64,000 nt of DNA from Trichechus inunguis (lineage: Eukaryota): positions 28,077,733-28,141,732 of the forward strand of contig CM102154.1 in the NCBI GenBank assembly GCA_046562895.1, given 5' to 3'. The first letter of the stretch is position 1, and each line of letters opens with the position of its first letter. Below, piece after piece: positions 4,483 through 62,557 of this stretch. The notes beneath the pieces are model-generated. The model searched no databases. It was not told the origin of the DNA and was given only the letters and a program-made list of their open reading frames with translations. The translations under genes were made by a program, and so were the position numbers.

Positions 4483-5455
4483 GGCATTCAACACTGCCAC
4501 ACCCCGTACGCCAGAACTCACCCCAGTCTGGAGGCATCCACCCCTTCACCCAGCCACTGGCACATGGGGTCCCTAAGCTTGCAGTGCCCTCCACCCCCTC
4601 CAATCACCAGCATCAGCACTTTGCTGGCCGAGCCAGAACAGCACATCTACATTGGGATAAGGCATGCAGACGTCCCAGCTGAAGAGCATTTTCACCTGCA
4701 GCAGGCAAGTGGGAGCCGCAGATCTGTGGCATTCAACACCACACCGCCCCCTATGTCAGTAGGTGTGGCCTGGTCCAAGGCGCCTGCCCCTTTGCCCACC
4801 CACTGGCGCAGGGGGTCCACGGACTTACAGCACCCTCCACCCCCTCTGATGACCCACACTAGCGCCTGGCTGGCCAAGCCGGTACAGCACATCCACACTG
4901 GGACAAGGTGGGAAGTGTTCCCAGCTAAAGCCCACTCAGAGCAGGCAAGAGGTAGCTTCAGACCTGTGACATTCAACACTGCCCTGCCGCCTAAGCCAGT
5001 AGATGTCTGCCTGGTCAGAGGCACCCGCCCCTTCACCTAAGCACTGGCAGAGGGGGTCCACGGACTTACAGAGCCCTCCATCCCCTGTGAACGGCCGCAC
5101 CAGCACCTTGCTGGTCAAACCAGTACAGCACGTCCACATTGGGACAGGGCAGGCAGTCTTCCCAGCTAAAGCCCACTTCACGTGCAACAGTCAAGCGGGA
5201 GCTGCAAACCTGTGACATTTTATACCACCCCGCCCCCTAAGCCAGTAGCTCTCAGCTCAGTTCAAGGCACTGGCCTCTTTGCAGAGCCACTGGCACAGAG
5301 GGTCCACAGAGTTGAAGTACCTTCCACCCCCTCCAATCACTCACATCAGCGCCTTGCTGGTCAAGCCACCACAGCACAGCCATATTGACAAGGTTGGCAG
5401 GGTTCCCAGCTGAAGACTACCTCAACTGCAGCAGCCCAACAGGAGCTGCAGACCT
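4483..5455 (+). repeat. Tandem array of four monomers of about 243 bp (starts 4483, 4726, 4966, 5213), plus partial units at 4385-4482 and 5456-5500, inside the L1 B 5'UTR
   Basis: Each unit begins 'tg[ga]cattcaaca..' and contains '..cactggc[ag]ca..gggtccac[ga]gacttacag..ccctccacccc..cagcac..ccaca[ct]tgggaca..cagctgaag..gcagcaggcaag..gagc[ct]gcaga[tc]ctg'. Periods are 243/240/247/243 bp. The proline-rich ORFs 4385-5388 on both strands are periodic artefacts of this array. Confidence 0.85.
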
Positions 5456-8400
5456 GTGAAATTGACCACGACTCCGCCTCCTAAGAAGGGAGCTCGACCA
5501 CCGATGCCTGGGACCTGAGGGCCAGAGGTACCGCCCACTCCATCCAGCCATCAACAACAGGGGCAGGAGGATTAGTGGTACCTCCTAATCCCTCCAGCCA
5601 ATGGCACCGGTCACCCAAGGACTGGCTGCACAACCCCCCATGAAATACTCCAGCAGAGAGGCATGACCTCCAACCGGGTGCCCATGGGAAGCCAAAAGCC
5701 CACTGCCTCGCACCCTGTATCGCCCTACACTCCAGCCAGAGACTTGTGCCTGCCTCAAACACCCCCACACAGCCCTGTCCACCCAGGACTGTAGGTGAGT
5801 CTGCACCACAACCCAGTGACCAATAACCTGGGAACCTTCACCCCAACCATCTGGCAAGCAGCAGAACCCAATGACCAGGGAAAACACCCCCTGCACCTAC
5901 AGCCAGGTGACCAGCATGACAGATACATCACCCCACCAAAAATGCCACCTAAATCCTCAGAAGCCTCATAAGAAGAGTGAAAAGGGTCCCATGTTCACAC
6001 ACATAGTAGCTGCTCCACTCCCCCTGAACAGGAGGTGAGAGCTTCAATGTAGCCAGATTTGCAGCCAGAGTGGCACATGTGCCCAGCCTTTTCGTATATA
6101 TAAAAACAAAAAAACAAAAATTCAGGATGCAGTAAACAAACATATAATAAATAAACATAATAACTTCTTGCTGCCTCGGAGACAACAGTCAACATCAAAT
6201 CACATAAAGAAGTAGGACAAGATGGCTCCAGCAAGTAACCAAAACAAAGAACCAGAAAACCTTCCAGAGGAAGATAAGGCAATGAAACTACCTGATAAAG
6301 AATTCAAAACACTGACATATAGAGTTGTCCAAGAGATCTAGAAAGAGATCAGGGAAAACACAGACAAAACCAAGGAAAACACAGACAAAACCAAGGAAAA
6401 CACAGAGGAACAGAAGAATTCAGGAAAACAACAGAACAAAATGACAGAATAAATAGGCTACTAGAAACCATACAAAAACAGCAACTAGAAATTCAAAAGG
6501 TTAACAATAAAATTTCAGAATTAGACAACTCAAAAGAAGGACAAAGAAGCAGAACTGAGACAATGGAAGACAGCATTAATGAGATTGAAGACAAATCTCT
6601 TAACATCAATTTATTTGAGGAAAAAATCACAAAAAAGAATGAAAAAAATTAAGAAAAGCTAAGAATTATTTAGAACATTATCAAGAGGAAAAACCTATGT
6701 GTGACCGGAGTTCAGAACAGGAGGGGATAATAGAAAACAGAGAGAGTACTGTTGACGATTTGCTGGCAGAAAACTTCCCTAATATCATAAAAGACAAGAA
6801 GATATCCATCCGAAAAGCTCAACAAACCTCATACAGGACAGACCCAGAAGAAAGTCACCAAGACATATCCATAATGAAACTTACCAAAACCAAAGACAAA
6901 AAAGAATCCTGAGTGCAGCTAGGGAAAAATGAAAAGTCACCTACAAAGGAGAACCAATAAAACAAAGCTCTGACTACTCAGCAGAAACCATGCAGACAAG
7001 AAGGCAATGGGATGACATATGTAAAGCCCAGAAAAAAAAAAAAAAAACTGAGAGCCAAGAACTATATATCCAGCAAAACTGTCTCTCAAATACCATGGCA
7101 AAATCAGGATACTTCCAGATAAACAGAAATTAAGGGAATATGTAAAAACCAGACCAAAATTACAAAAAATATTAAACAGAGTCCTCCAGTTAGAGAACCA
7201 ACAACATCAGAAAATAATACAAGACTAGGACACAGGACAGATCAACCAGATACCAACCCAGACAGGGAATTCTCAAAAACAAAACAAATCAAAAGACTGA
7301 AAATAGGGAACCAGAGACATTGATATGTAAATGACAGCAACATCAAAATGAAAAAGAGGGAAAGAACGGTGTAGTTACACAACTTCCATATGGAAAACAA
7401 GTCAAGGTGATATTAAGAAATAAAACTTAGGTAAATAAAGGTAAATTTCATGGTAACCACAAAGAAGTTAACAAACCTATACATCAAAATAAAAAAGAAG
7501 ACAAACATAAAGACTCAGTAAACACAAAATCAATAATAATGAGAGAAATGCAAAGAAAATCCACAAACAGAACTCAGCAAAGAAAATTAAGCAGAACACA
7601 GAAACCATGAACACTACAAAAACAACAAAATGACAGCAGTAAACTCATACTTCTTAATAATTATACTGAATATAAATGGCTGAAATGCACCAGTAAAGAG
7701 ATAGAAAGTGGCAGAATGGTTAAAGAAACATGATCCATCTATATGCTGTCTACAAGAGACACACCTTAGACACAAACACATAAACACACTAAAACTCCAA
7801 AGATAAAAAAATACATCAAGTAAACAATAACCAAAAAACAGTAGGTGTGGAAATGTTAATCTCCGATAAAACAGATTTTAAAGCAAAATCCACCACAAAG
7901 GATAAGGAAGGACACCACATAATGATTAAAAGGTCAATATATCACAAAAATATAATCTTAATAAATATATACACACCCAATGACAGGGCTCAAAAATACA
8001 TAAATTCTAACAGCCTTGAAAAGAGAAATAGACAGCTCCACAATAATAGTAGAAGACTTCAACATACCACTTTCAGTGAAGGACAGAACATCTAGAAATA
8101 AAATAAATAAAGATACAGAAGACCTAAATGCCACAATCAACCAACTCGACCTCATATACATATACAAAACATACCATACAACAGCAGCAAAGTATACATT
8201 CTTTTCCAATGCACATGGAACATTATCCAGAATAGACCATATTTTAGGCCACAAAGCAAGCCTCAACAAAACCCAAAGCATCAAAATAATACAAAGCATC
8301 TTTTCTGATCATAATGCCATAAAAGTAGAAATTAATAATAGAAACAGCAAGGGAAAAAAATCAAATACATGGAAATTAAATAACACTTTGCTTAAAAACA

Positions 8401-16587: not shown

Positions 16588-16742
16588 ACCAAACCCATTC
16601 CCATCGAGTCAATTCCGACTCACAGCGACCCTATATGTCAGAGTAGAACTGCCCCATATGGTTTCCCAAAAACGGCTGGTGGATTCAAATGGCTGTCCTC
16701 TTTTAGCAGCTGAGCTCTTAACCACTGCACCACCAGGGCTCC
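16588..16742 (-). mobile_element. AfroSINE copy (tRNA-derived afrotherian SINE) in a TTC5 intron. A further tail fragment lies at about 16330-16420 (+)
   Basis: Reverse complement of 'ggagccctggtggtgcagtggttaagagctcagctgctaa..ggattcgaaccaccagc..gggaaaccatatggggcagttctactctgacatatagggtcgctgtgagtcggaattgactcgatggg'. Confidence 0.85.
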
Positions 16743-26799: not shown

Positions 26800-28860
26800 T
26801 TAAGAGAAAGCAAACATACTTGGGGAAAAGACAGTCTCTAATAAATGGTACTGGCATAACTGGATATTCATTTGCAAAAAACTGAAACAAGACCCATACC
26901 TCACACCATGCACAAAAACTAACTCCAAATGGATCAAAGACCTACATATAAAATCTAAAATGATAAAGATCAACGGAATAAAAAATTGGGACAAAGCTAG
27001 GAGCCCTAATACATGACCTAAACAGAATATGAACCATAAGTAACAATGCACAAGCACCAGAAGAGAGACTAGATAACTGGAAGCTCCTAAAAATCAAACA
27101 CGTATGCTCATCAAAAGACTTCACCAAAAGAGGAAAAAGACAACTTACAGACTGGGAAAAAAATTTTGGCTACGACAAATCTGATCAGCCTCTTATCTCT
27201 AAACTCTACAAGATACTGCAAAATCTCAACAGCAAAAAGACAAATAACCCAATTAAAAAATGGGCAAAGGATGTAAACAGGCACTTCACCAAAGAAGACA
27301 TTCAGGCAGCTAACAGATACATGAAGAAATGATCTTTAGCCATTAGAGAAATGCAAATCAAAACTACAATAAGATACCATCTCACCCCAACAAGGCTAGC
27401 ATTAATCCAAAAAACACAAAATAATAAATGCTGGAGAGGTTGTGGAGAGACTGGAACACTTATACACTGTTGGTGGGAATGTAAAATGATACAACCACTT
27501 TGGAAATCGATTTGGCGCTTCCTTAAAAAGTTTGAAATAGAAGTACTACATGATCTAGCAATCTCACTCCTTGGAATATATCCTAGAGAAATAAGAGTCG
27601 TCACACGAATAGATATATGTACGCCCATGTTCATTGTAGCACTGTTCGTGATAGCAAAAAGATGCAAACAACCCAGGTGCCCAACAACAGATGAATGGAT
27701 AAAAAAATTATGGTATATTCACACAGTGGAATATCACGCAACGATAAAGAACAACGATGAATCCGTGAAACATCTTATAACATGGACGAATCTGGAGGGC
27801 ATTATGCTGAGTGAATTTAGTCAGTCACAGAAGGGCAAATATTGTATAAGACCACTATTATAAGAACTCAAGAAAAGGTTTAAACACAGAAGAAAACATT
27901 CTTTGATGATTACAAGGGTGGGGAGGGAGGGTGAGAGTTATTCACTAACTAGATAGTAGACAAGAATTATCTTAGGTGAAGGGAAGGACAGAACACAGTA
28001 CAGGGGAAGTCAGCACAACTGGACTAAACCAAAGCTAAGAAGTTTCCTGAATACAATCAAACACTTTGAGAGACAGAGTAGCAGGGGAAGGAGTCTGGGG
28101 ACCATGCTTTCAGGGGACATCTAGGTCAACTGGCATAACAAAGCTTATTAAGAAAATGCTCTGCATCCTACTTTGGTGAATGCCACCTGGGGTCTTACAA
28201 GCTTGCAAGCGGCCATCTAAGATGCATCAATTTGTCCCAACCACTTGGAGTAAAGGCGAATGAAGAACACCAAAGACACAAGGAAAGTAGTAGCCCAAGA
28301 GACAGAAAGGGCCATATAAACCAGAGACTTCATCAGCCTGAGACCAGAAGAACTAGATAGTGCCCAGCTACCACCAATGACCACCCTGAATGGGAACACA
28401 ACAGAGAGTCCCTCATGGAGCAGGAGAAAGGTGGGGTGCAGAACTCAAATTCTAGTAAGAAGACCAGACTTAATGGTCTGACTGAGACTGGAGGAACCCC
28501 GGAAAGCATGGCCCCTGGATTCTCTATCAGCCCAGAACTAAAACAATTCCCGAGGCCAACTCTTCAGACAGGGATTAGACTGGACTGTGGGACATAAAGT
28601 GATACTCATGAGGAGTGTGCCTTTTAGCTCAGGTAGATACAAGAGACCAAAGAGGCAGCTTCTGTCCAGAGGTGACATGGGAAGGCAGAGAAGGTTAGGA
28701 GCTGGTTGAACGGACATGGGGAATCAGAGGTGGAAAGGAGAAGTGTGTTGTCGCAGTATGGGGAGAGCAATCAGGGTTATATAACAATGTGTGTATAAAT
28801 TTTTATATGGGAGACTAACTTGAAATGTAAACTTCATTTAAACTACAATAAAGAAAAAAG
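26800..28860 (+). mobile_element. L1 copy C, 5'-truncated (end of ORF2 plus the full 3'UTR), in CCNB1IP1 intron 2
   Basis: ORF2 tail WGKDSL..NKWxWHNWIFICKK ... [59 protein letters not shown] ... [14 protein letters not shown], then the 3'UTR blocks ending '..gtaaacttcatttaaactacaataaagaaaaaag'. Confidence 0.9.
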
Positions 28861-31160: not shown

Positions 31161-34046
31161 GAGTTTGAAAGCATTCCCCTTGAGAACGGGAACACACAAG
31201 GATGCCCTTTATCATCACGCTTATTCAACATTGTGCTGGAGGTCCTAGCCAGAGCAATTAGGCTAGAAAAAGAAATAAAGGGCATTCAAATTGGTAAGGA
31301 AGAAGTGAAAGTATCTCTATTTGCAGATGGTATGATCTTATACACAGAAAACCCCAAAGAATCCACAAGAAAACTACTGCAACTAGTAGAAGATTTCAGC
31401 AAAGTATCAGGATACCAGATAAACACACAAAAATCAGTTGGATTCATCTACACCAACAAAGAGAACTTCCAAGAGGAGATCACCAAATCAATACCATTTA
31501 CAATAGCCCCCAAGTAGATAAAATACTCAGGAATAAATCTAACCAGAGATGTAAAAGATCTGCACAAGGAAAACTACAAGACACTACTGCAAGAAGCCAA
31601 AAGACACCTGCATAAGTGGAAAAACATACCTTGTTTATGGATAGGAAGACTCAACATTGTGAAAATGTCAATTCTATCCAAAGCAATATACAGATACAAT
31701 GCAATTCCGATCCAAATTCCAACAGCATTTTTTAATGATACGGAGAAATGAATCATCAACTTCATATGGAAAGGGAAGAGGCCTTGGATAAGTATAAAGC
31801 ATTAGTCAAGAAGAAGAACAAAATGGGAGACCTCACACTACCTGATTTTAGAACTTATTATACTGCCACGGTAGTCAAAACAGCCTGGTACTGCTACAAC
31901 AAGAGAAACATAGACCAACGGAACAGAATTGAGAATCCAGAGATAAATTCATCCACCTATAAGGAGCTGATATTTAACAAAGGCCCAAAGTCTGTTAAAT
32001 GGGGAAAAGACAGTCTCTTTAACAAATGGTGCTGGCATAACTGGATATCCATCTGCAAAAAAATGAAACAATACCCCTACCTCACACCATGCATAAAAAC
32101 TAACTCAGAATGGAACAAAGACCTAAATATAAAAACTAAAACAATAAAGATCATGGAAGAAAAAATAGGGACAACGCAAAGAGCCCTAATACATGGCATG
32201 AACAGAATACAAAACATTATTAACAATGCACAAATACCAGAAGAGAAACTAGATAAGTGGGAGCTCCTAAAAATCAAACACTTATGCTTATCAAAAGACT
32301 TTAACAAAAGAGTAAAACGACGACCTACAGAATGGGAAAAAATTTTTGGCCACAACATATCCGATCAGTTTCTAATCTCTAAACTCTACAAGATACTGCA
32401 AAATCTCAACGACAAAAAGACAAATAACCCAATTAAAAATGGGCAAAGGATGTGAACAGGCACTTCACCAAAGAAGACATTCAGGCGGCTAACAGATACA
32501 TGAAGAAATGCTCTCGATCATTAGCCATTAGAGAAATGCAAATCAAAACTACAATAAGATACCATCTCCTCCCAACAAGGCTAGCATTAATCCAAAAACA
32601 CAAAATAATAAATACTGGAGAGGATGTGGAGAGACTGGAACACTTACATGTTGTTGGTGGGAATGTAAAATGGTACAACCACTTTGGAAATCAATTTGGT
32701 GCTTCCTTAAAAAGCTAGAAATAGAAGTATCATACGATTCAGCAATCCCACTCTTTGGAATATAACCTAGAGAAATAAGAGCCATCACACGGATAGATAT
32801 ATGCACACCCATGTTCACTGCAGCACTGTTCACGATAGCAAAAAGACGGAAACAAGCTAGGTGCCCATCAACAGACGAACGGATAAATTACGGTATACTC
32901 GCACAATGGAATACTACACAAAGATAAAGAACAATGATGAATCCATGAAACACCTTATAACATGGATGAATCTAGAAGGCATTATGATGAATGAATTTAG
33001 TCAGTCACAAAAGGACAAATATTGTATGAGACGACTATTATAAGAAGTCAAGAAAAGGTTTAAACACAGAAGAAAACATTCTTTGATGGTTACGAGGGTA
33101 GGGAGGGTGGGAGAGGGGTATTCACTAACTAGACAGTAGACAAGAATGATCTTAGGTGAGGGAAGGACAGAACACAGTACAGGGGAAGTCAGCACAACCA
33201 GACTAAACCAAAGCTGAGATGTTTACTGAATACCACCAAACACTTCAAGGGACAGAGTAAGCAGGGGTTGGGGTCTGGGAACCATGGTTTCAGGGGACAT
33301 CTAAGTCAACTGGCATAACAAAGCTTATTAAGAAAATGTTCTGCATCTCACTTTGGTGAGTGGCATCTGGGGTCTGAAAAGGTAGCAAGCGGCCATCTAA
33401 GATGCATCAATTACTCCCAACCACCTGGAGCAAAGGAGAATGAAGAACACCAAAGACACAAGGAAAATATTAGCCCAAGAGACAGAAAGGGCCACGTAAA
33501 CCAGAGACTTCATCAGCCTGAGACCAGAAGAACTAGATGGTACCTGGCTACCACCAATGACTGCCCTGGTGGGGAACACAACAGAGAGTCCCTGAGGGAG
33601 CAGGAGAAAAGTGGTGTGCAGAACTCAAATTCTAGTAAAAAGATCAGAATGAGACTGGACGGACCCTGGAAGGCATGGCCCCCGAACTCTCTGTTAGCCT
33701 AAATCTGGAACCATTCCCGAGGCCAACTCTTCAGACAAAGACTAGACTGGACTATGGGACATAGAATGATGCTCGTGAGGAGTGTGCTTCTTGGCTCAGG
33801 TAGATACATGAGACTAAGTGGGCGGCTCCTGTCTGGAGGCGAGATGGGAGGGCAGAGAGGATCAGGACCTGGTTGAATGGGCACGGGAAATCTGGGGTGG
33901 AAAGGAGGAGTATGCCGTCACAGCATAGGGAGGGAGAGCAACTGGGGTCACATAACAATGCGTGTATAAATTTTTGTATGAGAGACTAGCTTGAATTGTA
34001 CACTTTCACTTAAAGCACAACAATAAAAAAATAAAATAAAAAAACA
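31161..34046 (+). mobile_element. L1 copy E, 5'-truncated (RT domain to the 3' end plus 3'UTR/poly(A)), antisense to CCNB1IP1 in its intron between coding exons 1 and 2. Flanked by a 24-25 bp TSD 'aagaaatataat[tc]cca[ct]ttttca[ga]' (31137-31160 and 34047-34071)
   Basis: ORFs 31233-31517, 31748-32455 and 32452-32718 give L1 ORF2 RT and C-terminal motifs. The 3'UTR ends '..cactttcacttaaagcacaacaataaaaaaataaaataaaaaaacaaag'. Direct repeats sit on both flanks. Confidence 0.9.
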
Positions 34047-35100: not shown

Positions 35101-37165
35101 GTTTTGTTTTGTTTTGGTATGCACTCCCATAGCACTTTGTTCTTTCCTTATGGTTGTAAACATTAAAAATGTATTATACACTCTGGTTTCTCTCCAGAAC
35201 ATATTAATCTTTGGTCTTTTACCAAAGATTTCTGGAGATGCAACGATTGTGAGTAAACAGCACAAAACAACAACAGCCAAGTTTTGGAAGCCTTGCATGG
35301 AGGCAGGGCTTATTTAAAAAAAAAAAATAAAGTATTACAAATGCCTGAGAGTTTTTTTGTTTTTTTTTTAAGCTTCATCTCCAACTGAACTGTAGCCTCC
35401 TTGAGGCTCATATGTCTTATTTATTGTTGTACACCCAATACCTAAGAAAGTTTATGAAATACCAATGTTTGCTGGTACTCAAAAAGTAAATGTTCAGTGA
35501 CTACACGGGGAAAAAAATGAGTAAAGAAAGAAAAGTTCATTTCTAGCTACCTTTGCAACTCATTCACTAATTTCCACCATACCTGAAAAGAAGAAAACAA
35601 CAACACATGTATGTGTTCAATCAATACTATCCCAAATAGGAATCCACTTTAAGATACAGCTTCTACTCATTCAGTCAGTAAAGATTTATTTAAACTTAAG
35701 ACGGAGCCCTGGAGGCTCTATGGTTAAGTGCCTCGCTGCTAACCTAAACGTCAGGACTTCGAACCCATCAGCCATTCTGTGGGAGAAAAGACCTGGAGAT
35801 CTGCTCCTGTAAAGATTACAGCCCAGGAAACCCTGTGGGACAGTTCTATACTCTACCCTATAGGGTTGCTGAAGTGGAATCGATTCGACAGCACACAACA
35901 ACAAAGAACAATAACTATGGTGGTCACTGAGGACGCAGTGATGTACAAGAATCAAAACCTGACCTTAAAGAACTTTCTTAACATGAGATGAACAAGTATG
36001 CAGGTAATTACAATACAGTATAAATAAGTGTAAGATATAGGAACGTATAAGAGGAGCACCTTACCCAGAAAAATAATAAAAATGTTACTTGATGGATGTT
36101 AAACACAACCATCAAAATGCATTATAATAAATATATATGCAAGATATAACAATATACTCAAGGACATGATTAAAGTTCTCCACAGGAAGATCTTTCTAAG
36201 AAGGCACCAAAGGCAGAAATCATAAAGAAGACTGATATATCTGAATACATAAACATTTTAAACTTCTGTATGTCAAAAAATCAATGAAGACTAACAAAAG
36301 TGAAAAATGAAGAAAATCTCTTGCAACATTTGAATTATTTATAGAGAAAATTCCTACAAATTAGTAGGAAAATAAATACAGCAACTGAAATAAGACTGAA
36401 ACAGACAATTCATAAAAGAAGAAATACATGAAAATAAAAGAAAACATGTTCATCTTACAAGTCATCAAAGATGACAAATTTAAAAAACAATGAGATTCTA
36501 TTTTACCTATATCTAACTGGTGTGCAGAAGGTATGAATACATAGAGAACCAAGCACTCTCATACTCTCATATGCTTTTTTGAGGGAATATTAACTGATAT
36601 AGCCTCACTGGAAGACAATTAGAAAATACTGTAATTTAAGAAATCTTTAAAATGTGTTTATCCACTTTTAGGAATTTAATCTTAGCAAATAATTAAGGAT
36701 GCAAATTTGACCATAAGAACATTCATCACAGCATTTTTTTATAACTTGGAAACAAATTATGATATAATGTAACCATGAAAATGATGATTACAGAATAGTT
36801 AAACTAAAAATTTTAATGTAATATTCATAATACATGTATCATACTAACTTTAACTAGCCATAAAAACAATGGGTGGTATTATCGTATTTTTGTACAGAAA
36901 TATATATATTTATACATAGAAAAAGTCAAGTAATACACAAACAAAAATATTAACATGGTTATATCTAAGTGATGGAATTATGGTTGGTTTTTAAAATTTT
37001 CTTCCTTTTGGATTTTCAACAACAAACGTAAATTTTGTACAAAATAAAACAATTTATTAAAAAGAAAGTTTTTCATACATTCATAAAACAGTGAAGGAAA
37101 AACACTGGACACTCCCACATATGCCTCAAGTCATACTCTCCAGAGAAACTAACCTAAGCACTAAC

Positions 37166-37487
37166 CTGATACGTCCAGAAAGCCAGTGCTCGGGAGCTAA
37201 TGTCCAACACAATCTCTGGTCGCAGTCCTGCCAACACCATGGCTTTATATTCCTCTGATGGACTGAGTTCTGTGCGGACAATATCTAGCTTCCCAGAAAG
37301 GGTACTGTTGCAGGCAGGGCAGATAGCTGGTGAACGACTAAACTCACCGCTGCCATGCTGATCACAGAAGATGTGAGAGCAGGCGGTGACCCACGCATAA
37401 CCAGAGAGTTTAAGGCGACACTTCCGATAATTACAAAGCAGCATGTCTTCACACAAAGACATAATGGAAGAATAAGGTCTCTAGATG
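37166..37487 (-). CDS. CCNB1IP1: CCNB1IP1 (HEI10) first coding exon: MSLCEDMLLCNYRKCRLKLSGYAWVTACSHIFCDQHGSGEFSRSPAICPACNSTLSGKLDIVRTELSPSEEYKAMVLAGLRPEIVLDISSRALAFWTYQ. ATG at 37462; 25 nt of 5'UTR up to the acceptor cttttcag at 37488-37495
   Basis: N-terminal RING-type zinc finger (CxxC...C.H..C..H) identical in pattern to human HEI10. Donor TATCAG|gttagt, phase 0. Total CDS is 99 + 111⅓ + 66⅔ = 277 codons, the length I recall for human HEI10. Confidence 0.9.
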
Positions 37488-40990: not shown

Positions 40991-43900
40991 CAATGAATCA
41001 TCTGTACATGGCTCAAGTACACATGCAAGAATTTCTACACAATTCCAAGAGGTACAATTGATAGGCTAGTATATAAGCACCTTCAAATTAATTAAATGTT
41101 GCAAAACCATTCTCAAAGCAATAATATAAATTTACACTGCTGCCAGCAAAGTGCATGAGAGGCCACTGCTGCACTCAGCAACATGTGGATGTGTCAGGTT
41201 TTTTGCTTTGTTCTGTTTGAATTTCTGCCCATTAGAAATGATATCTCAATGTTTTTAAGATTCAATTCCCTGATTACTAAAGAATTTAAGCATCTTTTCA
41301 AGTGAATTGACTATTCACAGATCCTCATCTGTGAATTGCCTATTCATATCCTTTGCTCACTTCCTTGACTTACATGGAGTCCTCTGTCAAGTTACATGGC
41401 AGGTAAATACGAGCTTGAAATGTTAGTGTACCCAAATCTATCCTTTCCTTTATTATGTCTATTCCAAAGTCATATTCCGTTTTTCTGCAGTTTTAAAGTT
41501 TTACTTTTCACATATAGATCTTTAAGCCATTCTTCCTAACATAAGGAGGCTAAGTAACAACAGGAGTTGTAAGGGGAAAGGTGACCACAACATTCAAGAA
41601 AGCAAAAATTCCAATAACCTCAATATTTGAATATGGTAGTTGTCTCATTTCCAGGTTATACTTAACATGCAAAGGTTATAAATTACACATCAAAATATTG
41701 GAAATGGTATACTTCATGTGCTTTTAGATTTAACAGTTACTACTGCCTATATGACAAGGAGCTTATTGATACAATGGTTAAGCACTCACCTGCTAATCAA
41801 AAGTTCAGTGTTTCGAACCCACCAACCACTCCATGGGAGAAAAGACCTGGGGATCTGCTCCCGTAAAGACTACAGCCTAGGAAAACCTAAGGGGCAGTTC
41901 TACTCTGTCCTATGGGGTTGCTAAGAGTCGGAATCTACTTGACGGCACACAAGGACATTACCTACATGAAGCAAAACTACTTAGAATAACAAAAGTATAG
42001 ACATGAGAAAGTTTTCATGAGAATATTAATATTTTAACTCAGTTGTCTGCTGTTTTTACACAAACTATTTAGCTGTAAATAGATCAATATTATGAACTGT
42101 GTATTATCCATGAAGTGATTTCAAGGTCACTTAATTTCTTTTCTGAACTCTGACAGAACAATCTATGCTTACACATTACTTACATCATTTAACTACAGAT
42201 TACTTTCCCCTTTCAAAAATGGCATTTTACCACGAAGTCTAATTTAAAGCTAATATACTCTCGTGTAGATACTGTAAGTACCTATCAGCTATGTTGTTGT
42301 TGTTGCTAGGTGCCTTAGAGTCGGTTCAGACTCACAGCGACCCTATGCGTAACAGAACAAAACACTGCTGGGTCCTGCGCCATCCTCACAATCGTTTATC
42401 AGATAGTAATTTTCCCTGCTATTACCTCTGAACCTTAGACTTTTAGCATCATCTATTCTAAAACCCATTTGATTCAAGTATTTGTTTTAAAAGAAGAATC
42501 TTATTCTAAATAATAAGTTTTATGTTCTCGCTAACAAAAGTTACTATAGTTGCATATCATTTTTGTAATTCTGGTATAAGCATGAGTAAGTTTTAAATCT
42601 CATTCTGAAAACACAAAAATATACCAAAATTCCAGTATTTTGATGTGTACTTTGTACCCCTTGAGTGTTAATATACTTCTATGGATATAATTACAGCATA
42701 TAGGGCAGAAAATTCCCTGAAGTATAATTTAGCCAGAACAATTGAGACTATCCCACCATTAAACATGAAGCAGAAATAACCATGCCAGAATAGTATGTGC
42801 AATTTAAATCAAGATATCTATTAAGGCTATAAATCAAATGTTCATAATAAAAGATTTCCTGTTAAATACCAGTAAACTTTTATGTATCTGTTCCTCACCT
42901 ACATAGGTTGTTTTTGGCGGTCATTTTTCATTGCCTCTTAGAAAGATTAAGCATCATAATCAGATATTAAGAGTTTTAAGTAGGCATGTGAGTACCCAGA
43001 TTGAGTGTGTGTGTGTGTATGTGTGTGTGTGTGTGTATGTAACATTGAAGTTTAAGCCCCACTTATTCCATCTAAATGTCTTACTGAAACACCATTAAAA
43101 TAGTTGCCATTTTCCAGAGATTAAAAAAAAAAAAAAAAATCAATGAACAATTTCAATTCAATTCACTTCAATTATTATTTTAATATTTCTTCTGGTCAAG
43201 CATTAGGGATAAGAAAGGTATGCTGCTCATGGAGCTTACAATCTATGATATTAGAAAAAAATATTTACTCTTTCCTCTGCACCTCTTACATGTCTTCAAG
43301 TCGACTGATTCTACAGGACCATTTCAGGTGAGAAAGGTCAGCTTCCATCTTTAATATGAAGAATCATCTACCTTCATGCTGCAAAGAGAAAGCTATTTTT
43401 TAAAACTGCCCAGAAATGTGTGTGAACAACCACGTGGAGACAGGGATAGAGAACTGAGTTAAACCATTTAAACATGAATGACTTCAGAGTTATCATATTT
43501 CAGTAACTACCAGAATCAGTTTACTACAGCCTTTTCATCATAGCCCTAGGTCAAAGCTATTCAAATACTATCACCTTCAAAAGGTTCTATTAGCTATATT
43601 CCTGTGTTTTAAAATTAACTTTCTTTTTTTTTTTAAATCACAGGTACACTGACTTAATCTAGAATTACTACCTGCTTTGTAATTGTTTGACTCCGCAAAA
43701 ATCAGAAGGCACTAACGGACAGCCAACCCATCCCGTGGTGCCCTGAGTGAAGACAAGCCAGGTTTGATATATGATGGACTAAAACCTCACTGCCTAAGGC
43801 TGCAAGCAGTGAGAGGAACAGCCATCAGAGTATATTTCCAACCACATTATTTTAAGAAACACTTAGTAAAAATAAAGGCATCTATGAACTGTTAATATGA

Positions 43901-44515: not shown

Positions 44516-46670
44516 CCCCACCCCAACATAAGTAATAAAAACAAAGAATTTTTGACAAGATATTATGTAAATGTCAAAAATTGGGAGGTAGTACAAAGTC
44601 TATGACATATACACATATATCCTAATGATAAATAGCTAATGCCTACTGAACATTTACCAAATGTTCCAAGCACTGCACATTCATTATTTTTTCAAAGTAA
44701 TCATCATTTCTCTGAGTGAGGTACTTTTATTATAATCTTTTAAGAAATAAAGAAACTTGTCAAGGTTACAGTTTGTTAAGTGATAGAGCATGGGTTTGAA
44801 CCGTCTGACACCAGAACCCATGCATAACAATACTATGATACGTGGCTACGTCTTTAATTGACTTTTTAAAAAATAAAATTATACAGCACCTTGGCAGCTA
44901 GCCACGAAGCCACAAAGCTTAATTTTCAAAGATTCAAAGATATATATGTCTTACATCAAAGCTTCTCAATTTCAACATAAGTCTTACCATAAAAGAAAAA
45001 AAGTCATCATCTGCAAATCCAGCATACAAAAGCATTTCAGACCAGAAACGAAGAGAGATTCGGATCTACTTTCGGTCTCTTGAAATTTCATTTCTGCAAA
45101 AGACAGTCAAAACCACGATCACAATAGAGGGTCCTGGACAGAGCTGGAGAAGGATGTAGAACAAAATTCTAACACACACAAAAAAGACCAGATTTACTGG
45201 CCTGACAGAGACTGGAGAAACCCTGAGAGGATGGCCCCCGGACACCCTTTCAGCTCAGTGGTGAAGTCACTCCCAAGGTTCACCGTTCAGTTGGGGATTG
45301 GACAGCCCCATAAAACAAAATGGGACTAATGAGGCACAACAGTCCAGGGACAAGGACTAGAAGGCAGGAGGGGACAGGAAAGCTGTGATAGGGAACCCAA
45401 GGTTGAGAAAGGACAGTGTTGACATGTGGTGGGGTTGTTAACGATTGTCATAGGGCAATATGTGTACTAACTGTTTAATGAGAAACTATTTTGTTTTGTA
45501 AACCTTCATCTAAAGTACAAAACAAAAAAGAATTATCTATGTGAGATCAAACTGACAACAGCAACTCAAAAGGTTTGATGGGAAGCCTAGGGGACAGTGA
45601 GTTGAAGATAACGGTGATGGAGTAATTTGGAAAAGGATAGTGAGAATAGTAGCACAACTGGAAGAACGTACTCGATGTCACTGAATTGTACATGTAGAAA
45701 TTTTTGAAATGGTGTTATCTTCGGCTATGTATATTTTCACCAAAAAAAAAAGGTCGAGAAGAGAGTGTTGACATGTCATGTGGTTGTTAACCAATGTCAT
45801 AAAACAATATGTGTACTGTTTAATGAGAAACTATTTGCTCTGTAAACCTTCACCTAAAGTACAATTAAAAAAAAAAAAACTTCATTGTGAATAATAATAA
45901 AAAAAAAAGACAGTCAAAAGCTAAAAACATTATAACAAGTGCTGATGTTACCTTGCATTATTTTTATTATCTGTGGGGGCACCATTTTGATTTCTTATTG
46001 CCAAATTCTCTAGGTCACCCTCACATATACCCACATTTCTTGCTAAAAATGCAGTCACAGGATAAGAAAACACGGCTGTCCTGTCCAGGTTCCTTAAAAT
46101 ATATATATATTTTTTAATTATACATGTAAACCCAATTTCAGAGACAAAAACTTACAGTATTTGAGTACGTTTTCAGATGATTTCTCAAGCAAACACATGT
46201 ATATAAAAATGTTTAAGGAGAAAAATGACTATACAAATTGTTCTATAACCTGTTTTAATGTATCATGAATATCCTTCCTTCCATTTCAAGAAACATAAAC
46301 CTATGTTCTTTTAAATGCCTGTATAGTGCTGCATTATATGGCCTTAACAAAATTGATTTAACCAACTCTGGGATTCTCTGAATCCTATATATAGACTGAC
46401 AAAACAGTGATAAGTTAAAAACTGCCAAGCTAGAACTATACCAGTCACCGGTGCATTTTCTGTTGTGTCTGAATTTTTGAATTAAGGATTCCTGACCCTA
46501 GTTCTATTTCCCTCAGAGATATTACAAGGCAAAGATAAAACAGAACAAGGTGCTGGTTGTGGTATCAAATTAATAATCACAAAGATTTAGGAATTACCTG
46601 GGATCACTGGCTAGAACCCAGGAAGAATTCCAAGGAGCAGAATTCAATTCCAGGTGTTTGCCCTAGCTTT

Positions 46671-46747
46671 AGTCTGCTCAGAGCATGTGTTTAATCAGGG
46701 TGATCAGCTGAAACACGGACTTAACATGCATTTCATCATGGCAAACT
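46671..46747 (-). ncRNA. SNORD126: C/D-box snoRNA (SNORD126-like) inside a CCNB1IP1 5'UTR intron. On the minus strand: agtttgcc-ATGATGA(C box)-aatgcatgttaagtccgtgtttcag-CTGA(D')-tcaccctgattaaacacatgct-CTGA(D box)-gcagact
   Basis: C box RUGAUGA at 46733-46739. D box CUGA at 46678-46681, 4-5 nt from the 3' end. A 7-bp terminal stem (agtttgc / gcagact, one G-U pair). Length 77 nt. Position in CCNB1IP1 intron 1 matches the human SNORD126 host-gene arrangement. Confidence 0.6.
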
Positions 46748-49700
46748 GTAAATGATTGGTGAAGGGCAAACCACCACCAGCTCCTAATACCTACAACACC
46801 AGGAAAGCCCTCTTAAGGTTGGGATTAAGGCTTTTCAACTACCAAATTTCAGCCACTAATAACACTGAGCCCCAACTCTTGCTAAAACTAAAAACCTGTT
46901 GTCATCAAGTCACTGCCAACTCTCAGTGACCCTATGGATGGATGTGAGCTGCCGACCTTCTGGTTAACAGCCAGTCTCGTAACCACTACGCCACCAGGGC
47001 TCCGTCTCTTGCTAGGTGATTTGAAATCCATATGAAGTCAAAATTAAGGGTTTTTTTTTATACTTACCTCTGGTATCAGATGAATCCAGCTTCTATCTAG
47101 GCATCATGTTGAACTACATGACCTATCAACTACCTAACATTATCTCTGGAAAATAAAAAATAAACAAAAATAAATAAACAAACACATAAAGGTTATGACT
47201 GTGTGACCTGAATACACACCAGCATGCTCCACACCCAAGTCATACCCATATAGCCTCAAGGAAAATTAGAGTAACTGCTCATTTTTATTCGACTTTCCAT
47301 TCAGTAAAATAAACTATAGATCCATGGAGAATGTCGTCAAATGCCCAAGTTCATTATCAAATTACAGCAGGACCTCTGCACTGACTCAGCTTGGCATAAA
47401 TGGAAAAGTTTCGATAAAATTGCACAGTAAATCTAACCAACTTCTGAAAGGTTACAAACCATGGGAGAATAGGTATGCAAAGGAACCAAGAACTATAAGA
47501 TTCAGATAAACGAGCAGATAATCCAAAATAGTCAGCTTTTTTCATAGCTGTTTCAGTGTTATTGAGCCAATGCCAACTGTATTTAATCTTTACTCTTGGG
47601 TGTCCTTTTTCACAGTAAACTAAGGAAAACCTTCACTTAAGATAAAATTCAGACAGCATGATCTGGAATCTAAGTCGGCCACAAGATGGCAATATAAGAA
47701 AGCTTTAATCTTCTCTTCCTGGGTTTGAGTATAAATTGAACTTTTAGGTGAAACACTGGACATGCCACTAATCACTGCAGGCAACCTCAGAGTATTTCCT
47801 GAAAAGGAATTCTTTACCTAATCGCTAACTAGAAATTTTTTATTACAGTTAATAAAAAATCTAAAATTCTTCATTTAAAACTAGAATTTGCAAAAGAAAT
47901 ATTACAATTATACCTTCATAATGTTCCTTTTCATGTTGCAATGTGGAGATTTAAAAATCCCTAACCTTTAGATACAGCCTAACCAGAAAGGCTCATGAAA
48001 ATTAATGTCCATGGTAAGCAGCAACATGGCAAATTGTAGTGACAGCAAGTAAGGTTAAGAATCACTGTTCAAGAAAAAAGGTGGACCTTGAGCTGGGGCT
48101 TAAAATTCAGTAGGTAGCCACTCACCATATGCAGCCATTTAAATTAATTACAATTCAAAATTCAATTCCTCAGTTACTTTAGTCACACTTTAATTATTCA
48201 GTGGCCACACATGCCTAATGACTACCATACTGGACAGCACAAATGTAGAACATTCCCATTACTGCAAAGTCCTACTGGACAGCATTACCTTAAAGGATGG
48301 GTATCACTGAAACAAACTGACAGAAAGGAAGCTGCGGCCATCCCTCTTAAAAACTCTTACTATCTGTTAAGCACTGTAGAAACTGCTTTATTCAAACTTC
48401 ACAACAACCCCATATTTATATTATACTCTGATATGCATTTAAAAAGTAAAGAAAAGTGAGGCTCAGAGAAATTTCCTAAGGTCACTTAGTTAGTAAGGGA
48501 TAGAACTAAGATTTAAATCCTGTTCCGTCAAAATTCCATACTCTTTTCACTTCCCCATGCTAACTTCCTACGTGAAGTAAGCAGCACGGCCATAGAACAT
48601 GGCTTGCATTTAGATGTAATGAGAATGATATGCTAGTTCAGTAAGTCAGAAAGCAACTGGGGTGTTTTAAGCATGAGAAATATAACCAAAGTGTTGTTTT
48701 ACTATGTCCTTGTCCTGTACTTGAATAATGCTTTAGTTATGTACAATGTTTTCAGGTCAGCAACATGCCAAATTAACTAAGGGAGCATACATATGGAAGC
48801 AACATATTAAGACAGAGGTTTTTATAGTTTTAACAATGTCTACTTCAAAACTGCAGGATCCAACTACTTGCTAGAGGAGAATAAATTAATAGGTTGAAAG
48901 GCACAACTTCTCTATTTGTCTCATCTCACATACAGAAAACCCAGATTGCACTGGTCCTAGTCTTTGTGTCCGTGGCACATAACACAAAGCCTAACACATA
49001 AATCCTGATGTTAAATATATGTACAGGATTCTAGTCGTGCTTCTACAAATGTCATTCTATCACATGAAGGCCATTCCACATTTCCTGAGTATTTGGGGAG
49101 CTGAAGTATTATTTTGTAAATCCTCTATAAACATACCCACTCAGGTTATTGACTGTGGGTATTAAGTGCTTCAAATAACAGTGCTCATGGCCAAAAATAC
49201 ATTTTATACATGTGACTGAATGCTTCATGAAGGCCTGATACAGACTACAGATTTATGATACTGAATCAGCTGACGCTTTCCATTTTAACATTGTGTTACC
49301 ATTCAATTTTACTCAGTTTCATCTCAATTTACTTAGTCTTTGTGACACAGGCAAGTGTCTTTTCTATCTAAAAACAACTTCTAATCTTTTTAGATAGAAA
49401 AGACAAATACCTGTGACACAAAGAACCATTTAAGGCATCATATCTTAGAGTTCAAGTACTTGCCTTAGTAGTCCCATCAGCCTTTAATCCTTTCTAATGA
49501 GAATGTCTAACTCCACCTGACTTCTAACAGGGTCTACAGCAGATGTTATAGAGGTTTTCACAGTGCCACTTCTGTTCTGGGAGGCTGCTGAAGAACCAGG
49601 CCTTCTCTCCTCAGTGGATTTCATCTTCAACCTGAAGCAAAAGGAAAACAACATAAAACTGGTCTTTTGGCTTGGGTCTCCTTCAGAGAGCTCTATAAGG

Positions 49701-62221: not shown

Positions 62222-62557
62222 GAGGACGGGGGAGAGTAGTCTGAATTGGGTTATGAGGCCCCCCTACGGGATACCTCACCTCAGCCATTGAACTCACTTT
62301 GCTGGCCGTGAGTCTGTTCCAAGCTCCGGCGAAGGAGGCATCCACCGCGCCCCTCCCGGGGGTGGAGTCCACGGCTTCTCCTGCCCAGTCTACCCGCGCG
62401 CGGAGACCCGTTTTCTGGGAACTCACCTCCCCACAACTCAGGGAGGGCCCTGTTAGGGCCGCCTGTGGCCCTAGTCTCAGACCTTCCCAAGGGACAAGTA
62501 TAGAGTGACGCGTGCACTCAGTTCGTGGCCCCACCGATGAGCTTCCCTCCGTCCTAT
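62222..62557 (-). ncRNA. RPPH1: RPPH1: RNase P RNA component H1, about 336 nt. Begins ATAGGACGGAGGGAAGCTCATCGGTGGGGCCACGA.., ends ..AATTCAGACTACTCTCCCCCGTCCTC, and is followed by TTTTTC (Pol III terminator)
   Basis: The reverse complement of 62222-62557 aligns almost base for base with human H1 RNA as I recall it, covering the P1-P4 regions ('GGGAAGCTCATCAGTGGGGCCACGAGCTGAGTGCGTCCTGTCACTCCACTCCCATGTCCCTTGGGAAGGTCTGAGACTAGGGCCAGAGGCGGCCCTAACAGGGCTCTCCCTGAG..GGTGAGTTCCCAGAGAACGGGGCTCCGCGCGAGGTCAGACTGGGCAGGAGATGCCGTGGAC..GCCGGAGCTTGGAACAGACTCACGGCCAGCGAAGTGAGTTCAATGGCTGAGGTGAGGTACCCCGCAGGGGACCTCATAACCCAATTCAGACTACTCTCC'). Confidence 0.9.

Follow-up and report, generated by a model that had tools for sequence, protein, structure and literature searches.

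A probable manatee orthologue of SNORD126 in a 5'UTR intron of CCNB1IP1, with a predicted guide for 28S-Am1310

The CCNB1IP1 locus and its non-coding RNA genes

The window analysed here, a stretch of 64,000 nt from the manatee Trichechus inunguis, contains the gene CCNB1IP1 on the minus strand and, in and around it, several non-coding RNA sequences (Table 1). The coding part of CCNB1IP1 consists of three minus-strand exons with clean splice junctions, as recognized from the listing of open reading frames and a tblastn probe. The spliced product of 277 amino acids matches orthologues at an E-value of 3.6e-180, contains a RING domain (PF14634), and differs at no residue from the CCNB1IP1 proteins of Trichechus manatus latirostris and T. 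inunguis. Scaffold JH594879.1 of T. manatus (locus L002) runs collinearly with the window and is 99.2-99.6% identical to it. The 90%-identity protein cluster that holds manatee CCNB1IP1 also holds TTC5 of many mammals, and TTC5 is the next gene downstream of CCNB1IP1; presumably, read-through or fusion gene models link the two.

The 5' exons of CCNB1IP1 were called by combining a cross-species transcript with the splice consensus. This transcript, L001, is a 1449-nt intronless, transcript-like contig that encodes a 97%-identical CCNB1IP1, and it maps to the window at 49632-49430, 47136-47067 and 45088-44981, and then to the three coding exons. The non-coding exons W, X and Y are defined in this way, of which X and Y are bounded by canonical splice sites (ttttccag/AGATAA...CAGAG/gtaagt for X, and ttttgcag/AAATGA...TATG/gtaaga for Y). 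In the squirrel, the CDS of CCNB1IP1 isoform X1 begins in the homologue of exon Y. Because an acceptor precedes exon W, an earlier CCNB1IP1 exon must exist upstream, and the transcript start lies upstream of 49.6 kb; no CpG-island-like promoter was found near 47-48 kb.

The 1974-nt intron between exons X and Y harbors a 77-nt element that matches SNORD126. Between this element and the ends of the intron lie 320 nt on the 5' side and 1577 nt on the 3' side, and the CCNB1IP1 ATG follows 9.2 kb downstream. SNORA79 is found in the next CCNB1IP1 intron, so that each of these introns carries one snoRNA, as is usual for vertebrate intronic snoRNAs. A preliminary description of this DNA had placed the element in a CCNB1IP1 5'UTR intron between two candidate 5' exons and had regarded the position as syntenic. 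Both statements hold, since exons X and Y flank the intron, SNORA79 and RPPH1 are present in the window, and the arrangement is kept out to platypus. Its figure of about 15.8 kb for the distance to RPPH1, which lies upstream of SNORD126, applies to the far end of that gene, whereas the near end is 15.5 kb away.

At gathering thresholds, Rfam 15 has four matches in total across the window. RPPH1 lies in a GC-rich patch, with 56% GC at 62-63 kb. The U5 snRNA-like sequence, which has an insertion before the Sm site and lies antisense within a CCNB1IP1 coding intron, also exists in T. manatus (L002 12155-12287), and is probably a U5 pseudogene or variant.

Table 1. Positions of the genes and sequence elements in the window; nt numbers refer to the SNORD126 RNA.
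Feature	Position	Strand	Basis or remark
Nuclear RNase P RNA (RPPH1), full length	62225-62553	-	Rfam, 262 bits
CCNB1IP1 non-coding exon W	49411-49631	-	mapping of L001
CCNB1IP1 non-coding exon X, upstream of the snoRNA intron	47068-47145	-	homologous to L001 nt 224-293
Putative external stem, upstream arm (core GGTTTGCCC at 46772-46764)	46762-46786	-	flank-flank duplex; conserved in placentals
SNORD126 gene, 77 nt by Rfam boundaries	46671-46747	-	Rfam RF01168
Terminal stem, 5' arm, nt 1-7 AGUUUGC	46741-46747	-	pairs with nt 71-77
Box C AUGAUGA, nt 9-15	46733-46739	-	GAUGA invariant in nine-sequence alignment
Internal helix, 5' strand, nt 19-24 GCAUGU	46724-46729	-	pairs with nt 60-65 in MFE fold
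Antisense guide element upstream of D', nt 28-40 GUCCGUGUUUCAG	46708-46720	-	28S complementarity
Box D' CUGA, nt 41-44	46704-46707	-	invariant; +5 position falls on middle A of 28S GAAAC
Box C' UGAUUA, nt 51-56	46692-46697	-	overlaps second internal CUGA; CUGAUU invariant
Element upstream of box D, nt 57-66 AACACAUGCU	46682-46691	-	most likely 3' strand of internal helix; partly variable
Box D CUGA, nt 67-70	46678-46681	-	invariant in alignment
Terminal stem, 3' arm, nt 71-77 GCAGACU	46671-46677	-	pairs with nt 1-7
Putative external stem, downstream arm (core GGGCAAAC at 46663-46656)	46632-46665	-	flank-flank duplex
CCNB1IP1 non-coding exon Y, downstream of the snoRNA intron	44988-45093	-	homologous to L001 nt 298-414
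SNORA79 (H/ACA snoRNA), in the next CCNB1IP1 intron	43681-43827	-	Rfam RF00600, 123.9 bits
CCNB1IP1 first coding part, ATG at 37462	37163-37462	-	open reading frames and protein match
U5 snRNA-like sequence	35178-35310	+	Rfam, 44.7 bits against a cut-off of 40; marginal

Anatomy and family of the 77-nt element

On the minus strand, from 46747 to 46671, the window reads AGUUUGCCAUGAUGAAAUGCAUGUUAAGUCCGUGUUUCAGCUGAUCACCCUGAUUAAACACAUGCUCUGAGCAGACU, and the RNA has the layout AGUUUGCC-AUGAUGA-...-CUGA-UCACC-CUGAUUA-...-CUGA-GCAGACU. The family SNORD126 (RF01168) matches this sequence over the entire model (positions 1-77 of 77) with a score of 108.9 bits, against a cut-off of 55, and an E-value of 6.9e-24. 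The terminal stem joins a box C of the RUGAUGA type to the CUGA of box D, with boxes D' and C' inside, which is the architecture of the C/D class. The stem comprises 7 bp, namely six Watson-Crick pairs and one U.G pair, and nt 8 is unpaired. A script located CUGA at nt 41, 50 and 67, and UGAUNA at nt 42 and 51.

Most of what the preliminary description had read from the letters is found here in the same form: a 77-nt C/D unit on the minus strand, with boxes C, D' and D and a 7-bp terminal stem closing C and D, and a likeness to SNORD126, for which it had pointed to an Rfam search and which the family match now confirms with the coordinates exact to the base and the same strand. It had also remarked that a six-frame view of open reading frames is blind to this gene; any Rfam-based pipeline finds it. 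Its internal CUGA (box D') corresponds to the first of the two internal copies, and it had omitted the second, at nt 50-53, which overlaps box C'. It erred in putting box D 4-5 nt from the 3' end, as seven nucleotides follow the box. According to Jorjani et al. (PMC4914119), SNORD126 is among the snoRNAs whose sequenced ends are unlike their annotation, and the mature 3' end is probably shorter than the Rfam boundary.

The C/D architecture was also sought by a regular expression and a stem search (RUGAUGA, then CUGA 45-110 nt on, with a closing stem of at least 6 bp) on both strands of the 64 kb window; SNORD126 is the sole site, and 50 block shuffles of the window gave 0.06 matches on average. 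The fold of minimum free energy (MFE) of the 77-mer contains the terminal stem, and the energy of this fold is not significant (z = -1.29). Because C/D snoRNAs are weakly structured and an unremarkable fold energy is usual for them, this z-score is not counted against SNORD126.

The guide element, its 28S target and conservation in amniotes

Nucleotides 28-39 of the snoRNA form 12 uninterrupted Watson-Crick pairs with the 28S rRNA sequence UGAAACACGGAC, to which G40.U is added (RNAduplex). The duplex has a dG of -21.2 kcal/mol, a value matched by only three of 1000 shuffles, and in about 7 kb of rRNA, 4e-4 chance matches to any particular 12-mer are expected. The 28S segment used, GACCCGUCUUGAAACACGGACC, was derived from the universal LSU primers D3A and LR3R and the published human assignment, and not from a manatee 28S sequence. 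Counting five nucleotides upstream from D' leads to the middle A of GAAAC in 28S UUGAAACACGGAC, and the nucleotide predicted to be methylated is the middle A of GAAACACGG. An A three nucleotides downstream of the predicted target fits the known neighboring site Am1313. That site, in the same conserved 28S helix, is guided by SNORD18 (U18), which differs from SNORD126 in that it belongs to an unrelated family with another host gene and another guide register.

Earlier studies agree with this target. SNORD126 was first deemed an orphan, and was later predicted and shown to methylate 28S rRNA conditionally (PMC9226514). Its site is A1310, and in rat the methylation is tissue-specific and tracks SNORD126 expression (PMC8307265). 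The modification 28S-Am1323, which is Am1310 in the newer numbering, drops when SNORD126 drops (bioRxiv 10.1101/2022.11.09.515592). As judged from base pairing and guide register, the assignment of SNORD126 as a D' guide for 28S-Am1310 (Am1323) is well supported.

CCNB1IP1 loci of other amniotes were taken with 10 kb of upstream flank and scanned with Rfam. SNORD126 and SNORA79 are both recognized in Colobus (SNORD126 at 107 bits), the squirrel Ictidomys (107.5 bits), two Molossus bats (107 bits), the Tasmanian devil (97.2 bits), the alligator (84.1 bits) and the platypus, which has two tandem SNORD126 copies (101.5 and 70.6 bits) with RPPH1 and PARP2 adjoining. The order SNORD126-SNORA79-CCNB1IP1 is as in the manatee in seven other amniotes, and SNORA79 is co-hosted with SNORD126 in every sampled amniote but the two muroid rodents. 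The deer mouse (Peromyscus) has SNORD126 at 96 bits in the same position, and its SNORA79 homologue is under the Rfam cut-off; the house mouse has no SNORD126 and only a 79-nt remnant of SNORA79. In the platypus locus (L010), both SNORD126 copies (5063-5137 and 5471-5547, about 330 nt apart) carry the invariant guide, RPPH1 lies 1.3 kb upstream of SNORD126, and PARP2 is divergent. SNORD126 sits in a conserved RPPH1-SNORD126-SNORA79-CCNB1IP1 block.

Nine amniote SNORD126 sequences were aligned. The GAUGA of box C, box D', the CUGAUU of box C', box D together with the GCAG after it, and nt 27-39 (AGUCCGUGUUUCA) are invariant, the last being unchanged from manatee to alligator. Variation is seen in the outer stem, the nucleotide adjoining D', the spacer between D' and C', and parts of the element close to box D. 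In the terminal stem, 93.7% of the cells pair, against 25-44% in slid registers, and none of 500 shuffles reaches this value; two of its pairs are fully compensatory in platypus (A-U to C-G and U-A to C-G), and pair 4 alternates between U.G and C-G. SNORD126 and its 28S guide element thus date back at least to the amniote ancestor. That all 13 guide positions are unchanged across amniotes argues that Am1310 is a conserved function, although the site is only conditionally methylated.

It is quite unlikely, by contrast, that the conserved role is a non-canonical one, in which the snoRNA binds hnRNPK through C'/D and thereby raises FGFR2 and PI3K-AKT, or pairs with pre-mRNAs through nt 37-53 and alters their splicing or stability. 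In human cells, hnRNPK binding needs C' and D (PMC8148486), and knockdown brings about transcriptome and splicing changes, the predicted mRNA contacts being centered on a non-guide region that overlaps D' (PMC9226514). The boxes of the D'-C' region are indeed invariant, but snoRNP assembly already accounts for their conservation, and what is unchanged across amniotes is the 13-nt element antisense to rRNA, while the spacer at nt 45-49 varies. The data in question come from overexpression and knockdown in cancer cells, and such activities could coexist with methylation and need not replace it. They leave unexplained that, outside the boxes, the segment antisense to rRNA is under the strictest conservation.

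The preliminary description had suggested two antisense guide regions, upstream of D' and of D, for comparison with rRNA. The first fits 28S-Am1310, but the second looks structural. Across the nine sequences, 96.3% of the cells pair in the helix of nt 19-24 with nt 60-65, where the deer mouse shows one compensatory change from G-C to A-U; in the Tasmanian devil, two mismatches break the helix in that register. A double guide would have ACACAUGC (nt 58-65) direct methylation of the U in 5'-GCAU*GUGU-3' of a second RNA. This sequence is largely kept from the alligator to placentals, and the nucleotide adjoining box D varies, a pattern also seen at the D' guide. We nevertheless consider a second guide very unlikely: the element is only 10 nt long and altered in the deer mouse and the Tasmanian devil, its conservation is explained by the pairing just described, and no second SNORD126 target is reported in PMC9226514 or PMC8307265. 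A by-eye comparison of the D-proximal element with 18S and 28S sequence gave only an interrupted 6-bp match, in 18S. With modest confidence, then, we regard the element upstream of box D as most likely pairing with nt 19-24 in an internal helix, and not as a second guide.

In the house mouse, neither snoRNA family was found at E<=1 within 10.4 kb upstream of the Ccnb1ip1 ATG, and blastn found only the SNORA79 remnant and no SNORD126. The absence of SNORD126 and Am1310 from the mouse, noted in PMC8307265, is for SNORD126 reproduced in this locus, and the loss is a real deletion. The mouse SNORA79 remnant is 78% identical over its 79 nt, and the deer mouse homologue 80%. Together, the states of the two snoRNAs in mouse and deer mouse (L004 5481-5546; L011 4528-4669) suggest a stepwise erosion of SNORD126 and SNORA79 in muroid rodents. 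The manatee differs from the mouse in that its copy upstream of CCNB1IP1 is intact, and the rat gene, according to PMC8307265, is functional but tissue-restricted.

The manatee gene resembles human SNORD126 (RF01168) in its full-length match to the model, its 77-nt box layout, its CCNB1IP1 host and its neighbors SNORA79 and RPPH1; the manatee itself is an afrotherian sirenian, and the likeness in sequence is judged by way of the Rfam consensus and the catarrhine Colobus. The manatee D' guide is identical to those of the Rfam consensus and Colobus, and the Colobus snoRNA differs by one spacer nucleotide. In short, this is a snoRNA already known, for which family score, host, synteny, boxes, terminal stem and guide register all agree. 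From these sequence comparisons, the 77-nt element very probably represents SNORD126 in the manatee (Trichechus): an orthologous box C/D snoRNA encoded in an intron, and a guide for 28S-Am1310. Beyond correct annotation, the manatee gene itself matters little.

The host intron and the flanks of SNORD126

Efficiently processed intronic C/D snoRNAs tend, though not strictly, to be separated from the 3' splice site by about 70-80 nt. The manatee SNORD126, with 1577 nt before the acceptor of exon Y, departs from this tendency. In the colobus, squirrel and bat, roughly 0.5-0.8 kb separate SNORD126 from the next exon, against 1.6 kb in the manatee. The long distance, the only atypical trait of the gene, is common to the other placentals examined, and the 70-80 nt placement is a tendency of the class and not a defining feature. 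The manatee distance reaches 1.6 kb because the host intron carries lineage-specific insertions, and at such a distance the expression of SNORD126 could be weak or conditional, as reported in rat. A candidate 13-nt micro-exon (ag/CCAGTGATCCCAG/gt, 46610-46598), 60 nt downstream of SNORD126, would have restored the typical distance to a 3' splice site; it has no match in L001 and was rejected.

About 120 nt are inserted relative to other placentals between exon X and SNORD126 (about 46884-47007, minus strand). The insertion starts with GGAGCCCTGGTGGC, a motif located at 46990-47003 and also at 16729, 35703 and 54893, and thus present four times in the window against an expectation of 0. The T. 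manatus copy of the insertion has a tRNA-like Rfam score of 33.5 bits (L002 469-539), but ARAGORN finds no tRNA gene, and the sequence is instead the head of a dispersed SINE-like repeat. By its sequence, the insertion looks like a tRNA-derived SINE, possibly an AfroSINE.

The approximately 260 nt around SNORD126 are 84-87% conserved, against 66-75% in the rest of the intron. The two flanks can form a duplex with a dG of -26.3 kcal/mol in the manatee (z = -3.3; 0.3% of shuffles as good). The corresponding duplexes have z-values of about -3 in colobus and squirrel, -1.6 in the deer mouse and about -0.8 in the bat Molossus, where it is weak, and the alligator flanks pair differently (z = -2.5). 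No compensatory change was found among the compared species, so the external stem is a matter of conservation and complementarity, and not of proof. GTTTGCC also constitutes nt 2-8 of the snoRNA, and the downstream block could pair with either copy.

External stems can help C/D snoRNPs that are distant from the branch point to assemble independently of splicing. Darzacq and Kiss in 2000 and Hirose and colleagues in 2003 reportedly described intronic C/D snoRNAs that depend on stems formed by their flanks and whose assembly does not require splicing. SNORD126 is like these in its distance to the 3' splice site and in the placental-conserved complementarity of its flanks; it differs in that it also has a good internal terminal stem of 7 bp, its flanking stem being putative. 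Because SNORD126 lies 1.6 kb from the 3' splice site, its assembly would probably be aided by the flanking stem and not by proximity to the branch point. We put forward a stronger proposal tentatively, as one that is possible but doubtful, on the basis of the flanking sequences: that production of SNORD126 depends on the placental-conserved external stem (GGTTTGCCC...GGGCAAAC and outer pairs) and not on closeness to the branch point, and that splicing-independent, possibly regulated assembly could underlie both the conditional, tissue-specific A1310 methylation reported for the rat and the erosion that this locus has repeatedly undergone among muroids. A flanking stem would be a possible explanation of how a snoRNA so far from a 3' splice site is made.

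As a whole, the manatee gene may operate as follows. SNORD126 would be transcribed within the CCNB1IP1 pre-mRNA, as part of the X-Y intron of the 5'UTR. Exonucleolytic trimming would free it from the excised or unspliced intron, with the flanking stem possibly assisting assembly, and its ends would be guarded by the C/D kink-turn, the terminal stem, SNU13, NOP58, NOP56 and fibrillarin. Like other members of its class, it would persist as a stable species of about 70-80 nt in complex with these four proteins. The 13-nt element upstream of D' would pair with 28S ...UUGAAACACGGAC..., and fibrillarin would 2'-O-methylate the middle A of GAAAC, the nucleotide that faces position D'+5. For the manatee, then, expression, methylation and the assembly of the snoRNP are predictions from sequence.

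That the manatee copy is instead silent or decaying, on the path taken by the mouse locus, or a look-alike that arose by chance or from a repeat, is extremely unlikely. It is true that among rodents one species is without the gene (mouse) and another expresses it in a restricted way (rat), that so long a distance from the 3' splice site is unfavorable, and that a SINE has been inserted about 240 nt upstream of SNORD126. However, neither in any box nor in the guide does the manatee sequence deviate from the placental consensus, it scores as 100% identical to the T. manatus copy, its position is orthologous, and the conservation of its surroundings relative to the rest of the intron speaks against decay; chance is excluded by the Rfam E-value of 7e-24 and the shuffles. 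An orthologous SNORD126 gene is therefore preferred.

Fragments of open reading frames at 27351-27863, 31233-32718 and 32861-33043, all on the plus strand, lie in CCNB1IP1 introns and, by their appearance, are taken by us to be LINE-1 ORF2. Sequence related to these LINE-1-like fragments, at about 85-87% identity, exists at 0.5-3.4 kb and 58.9-61.8 kb of the window, and the strong A/T skew of both regions fits LINE-1-related sequence.
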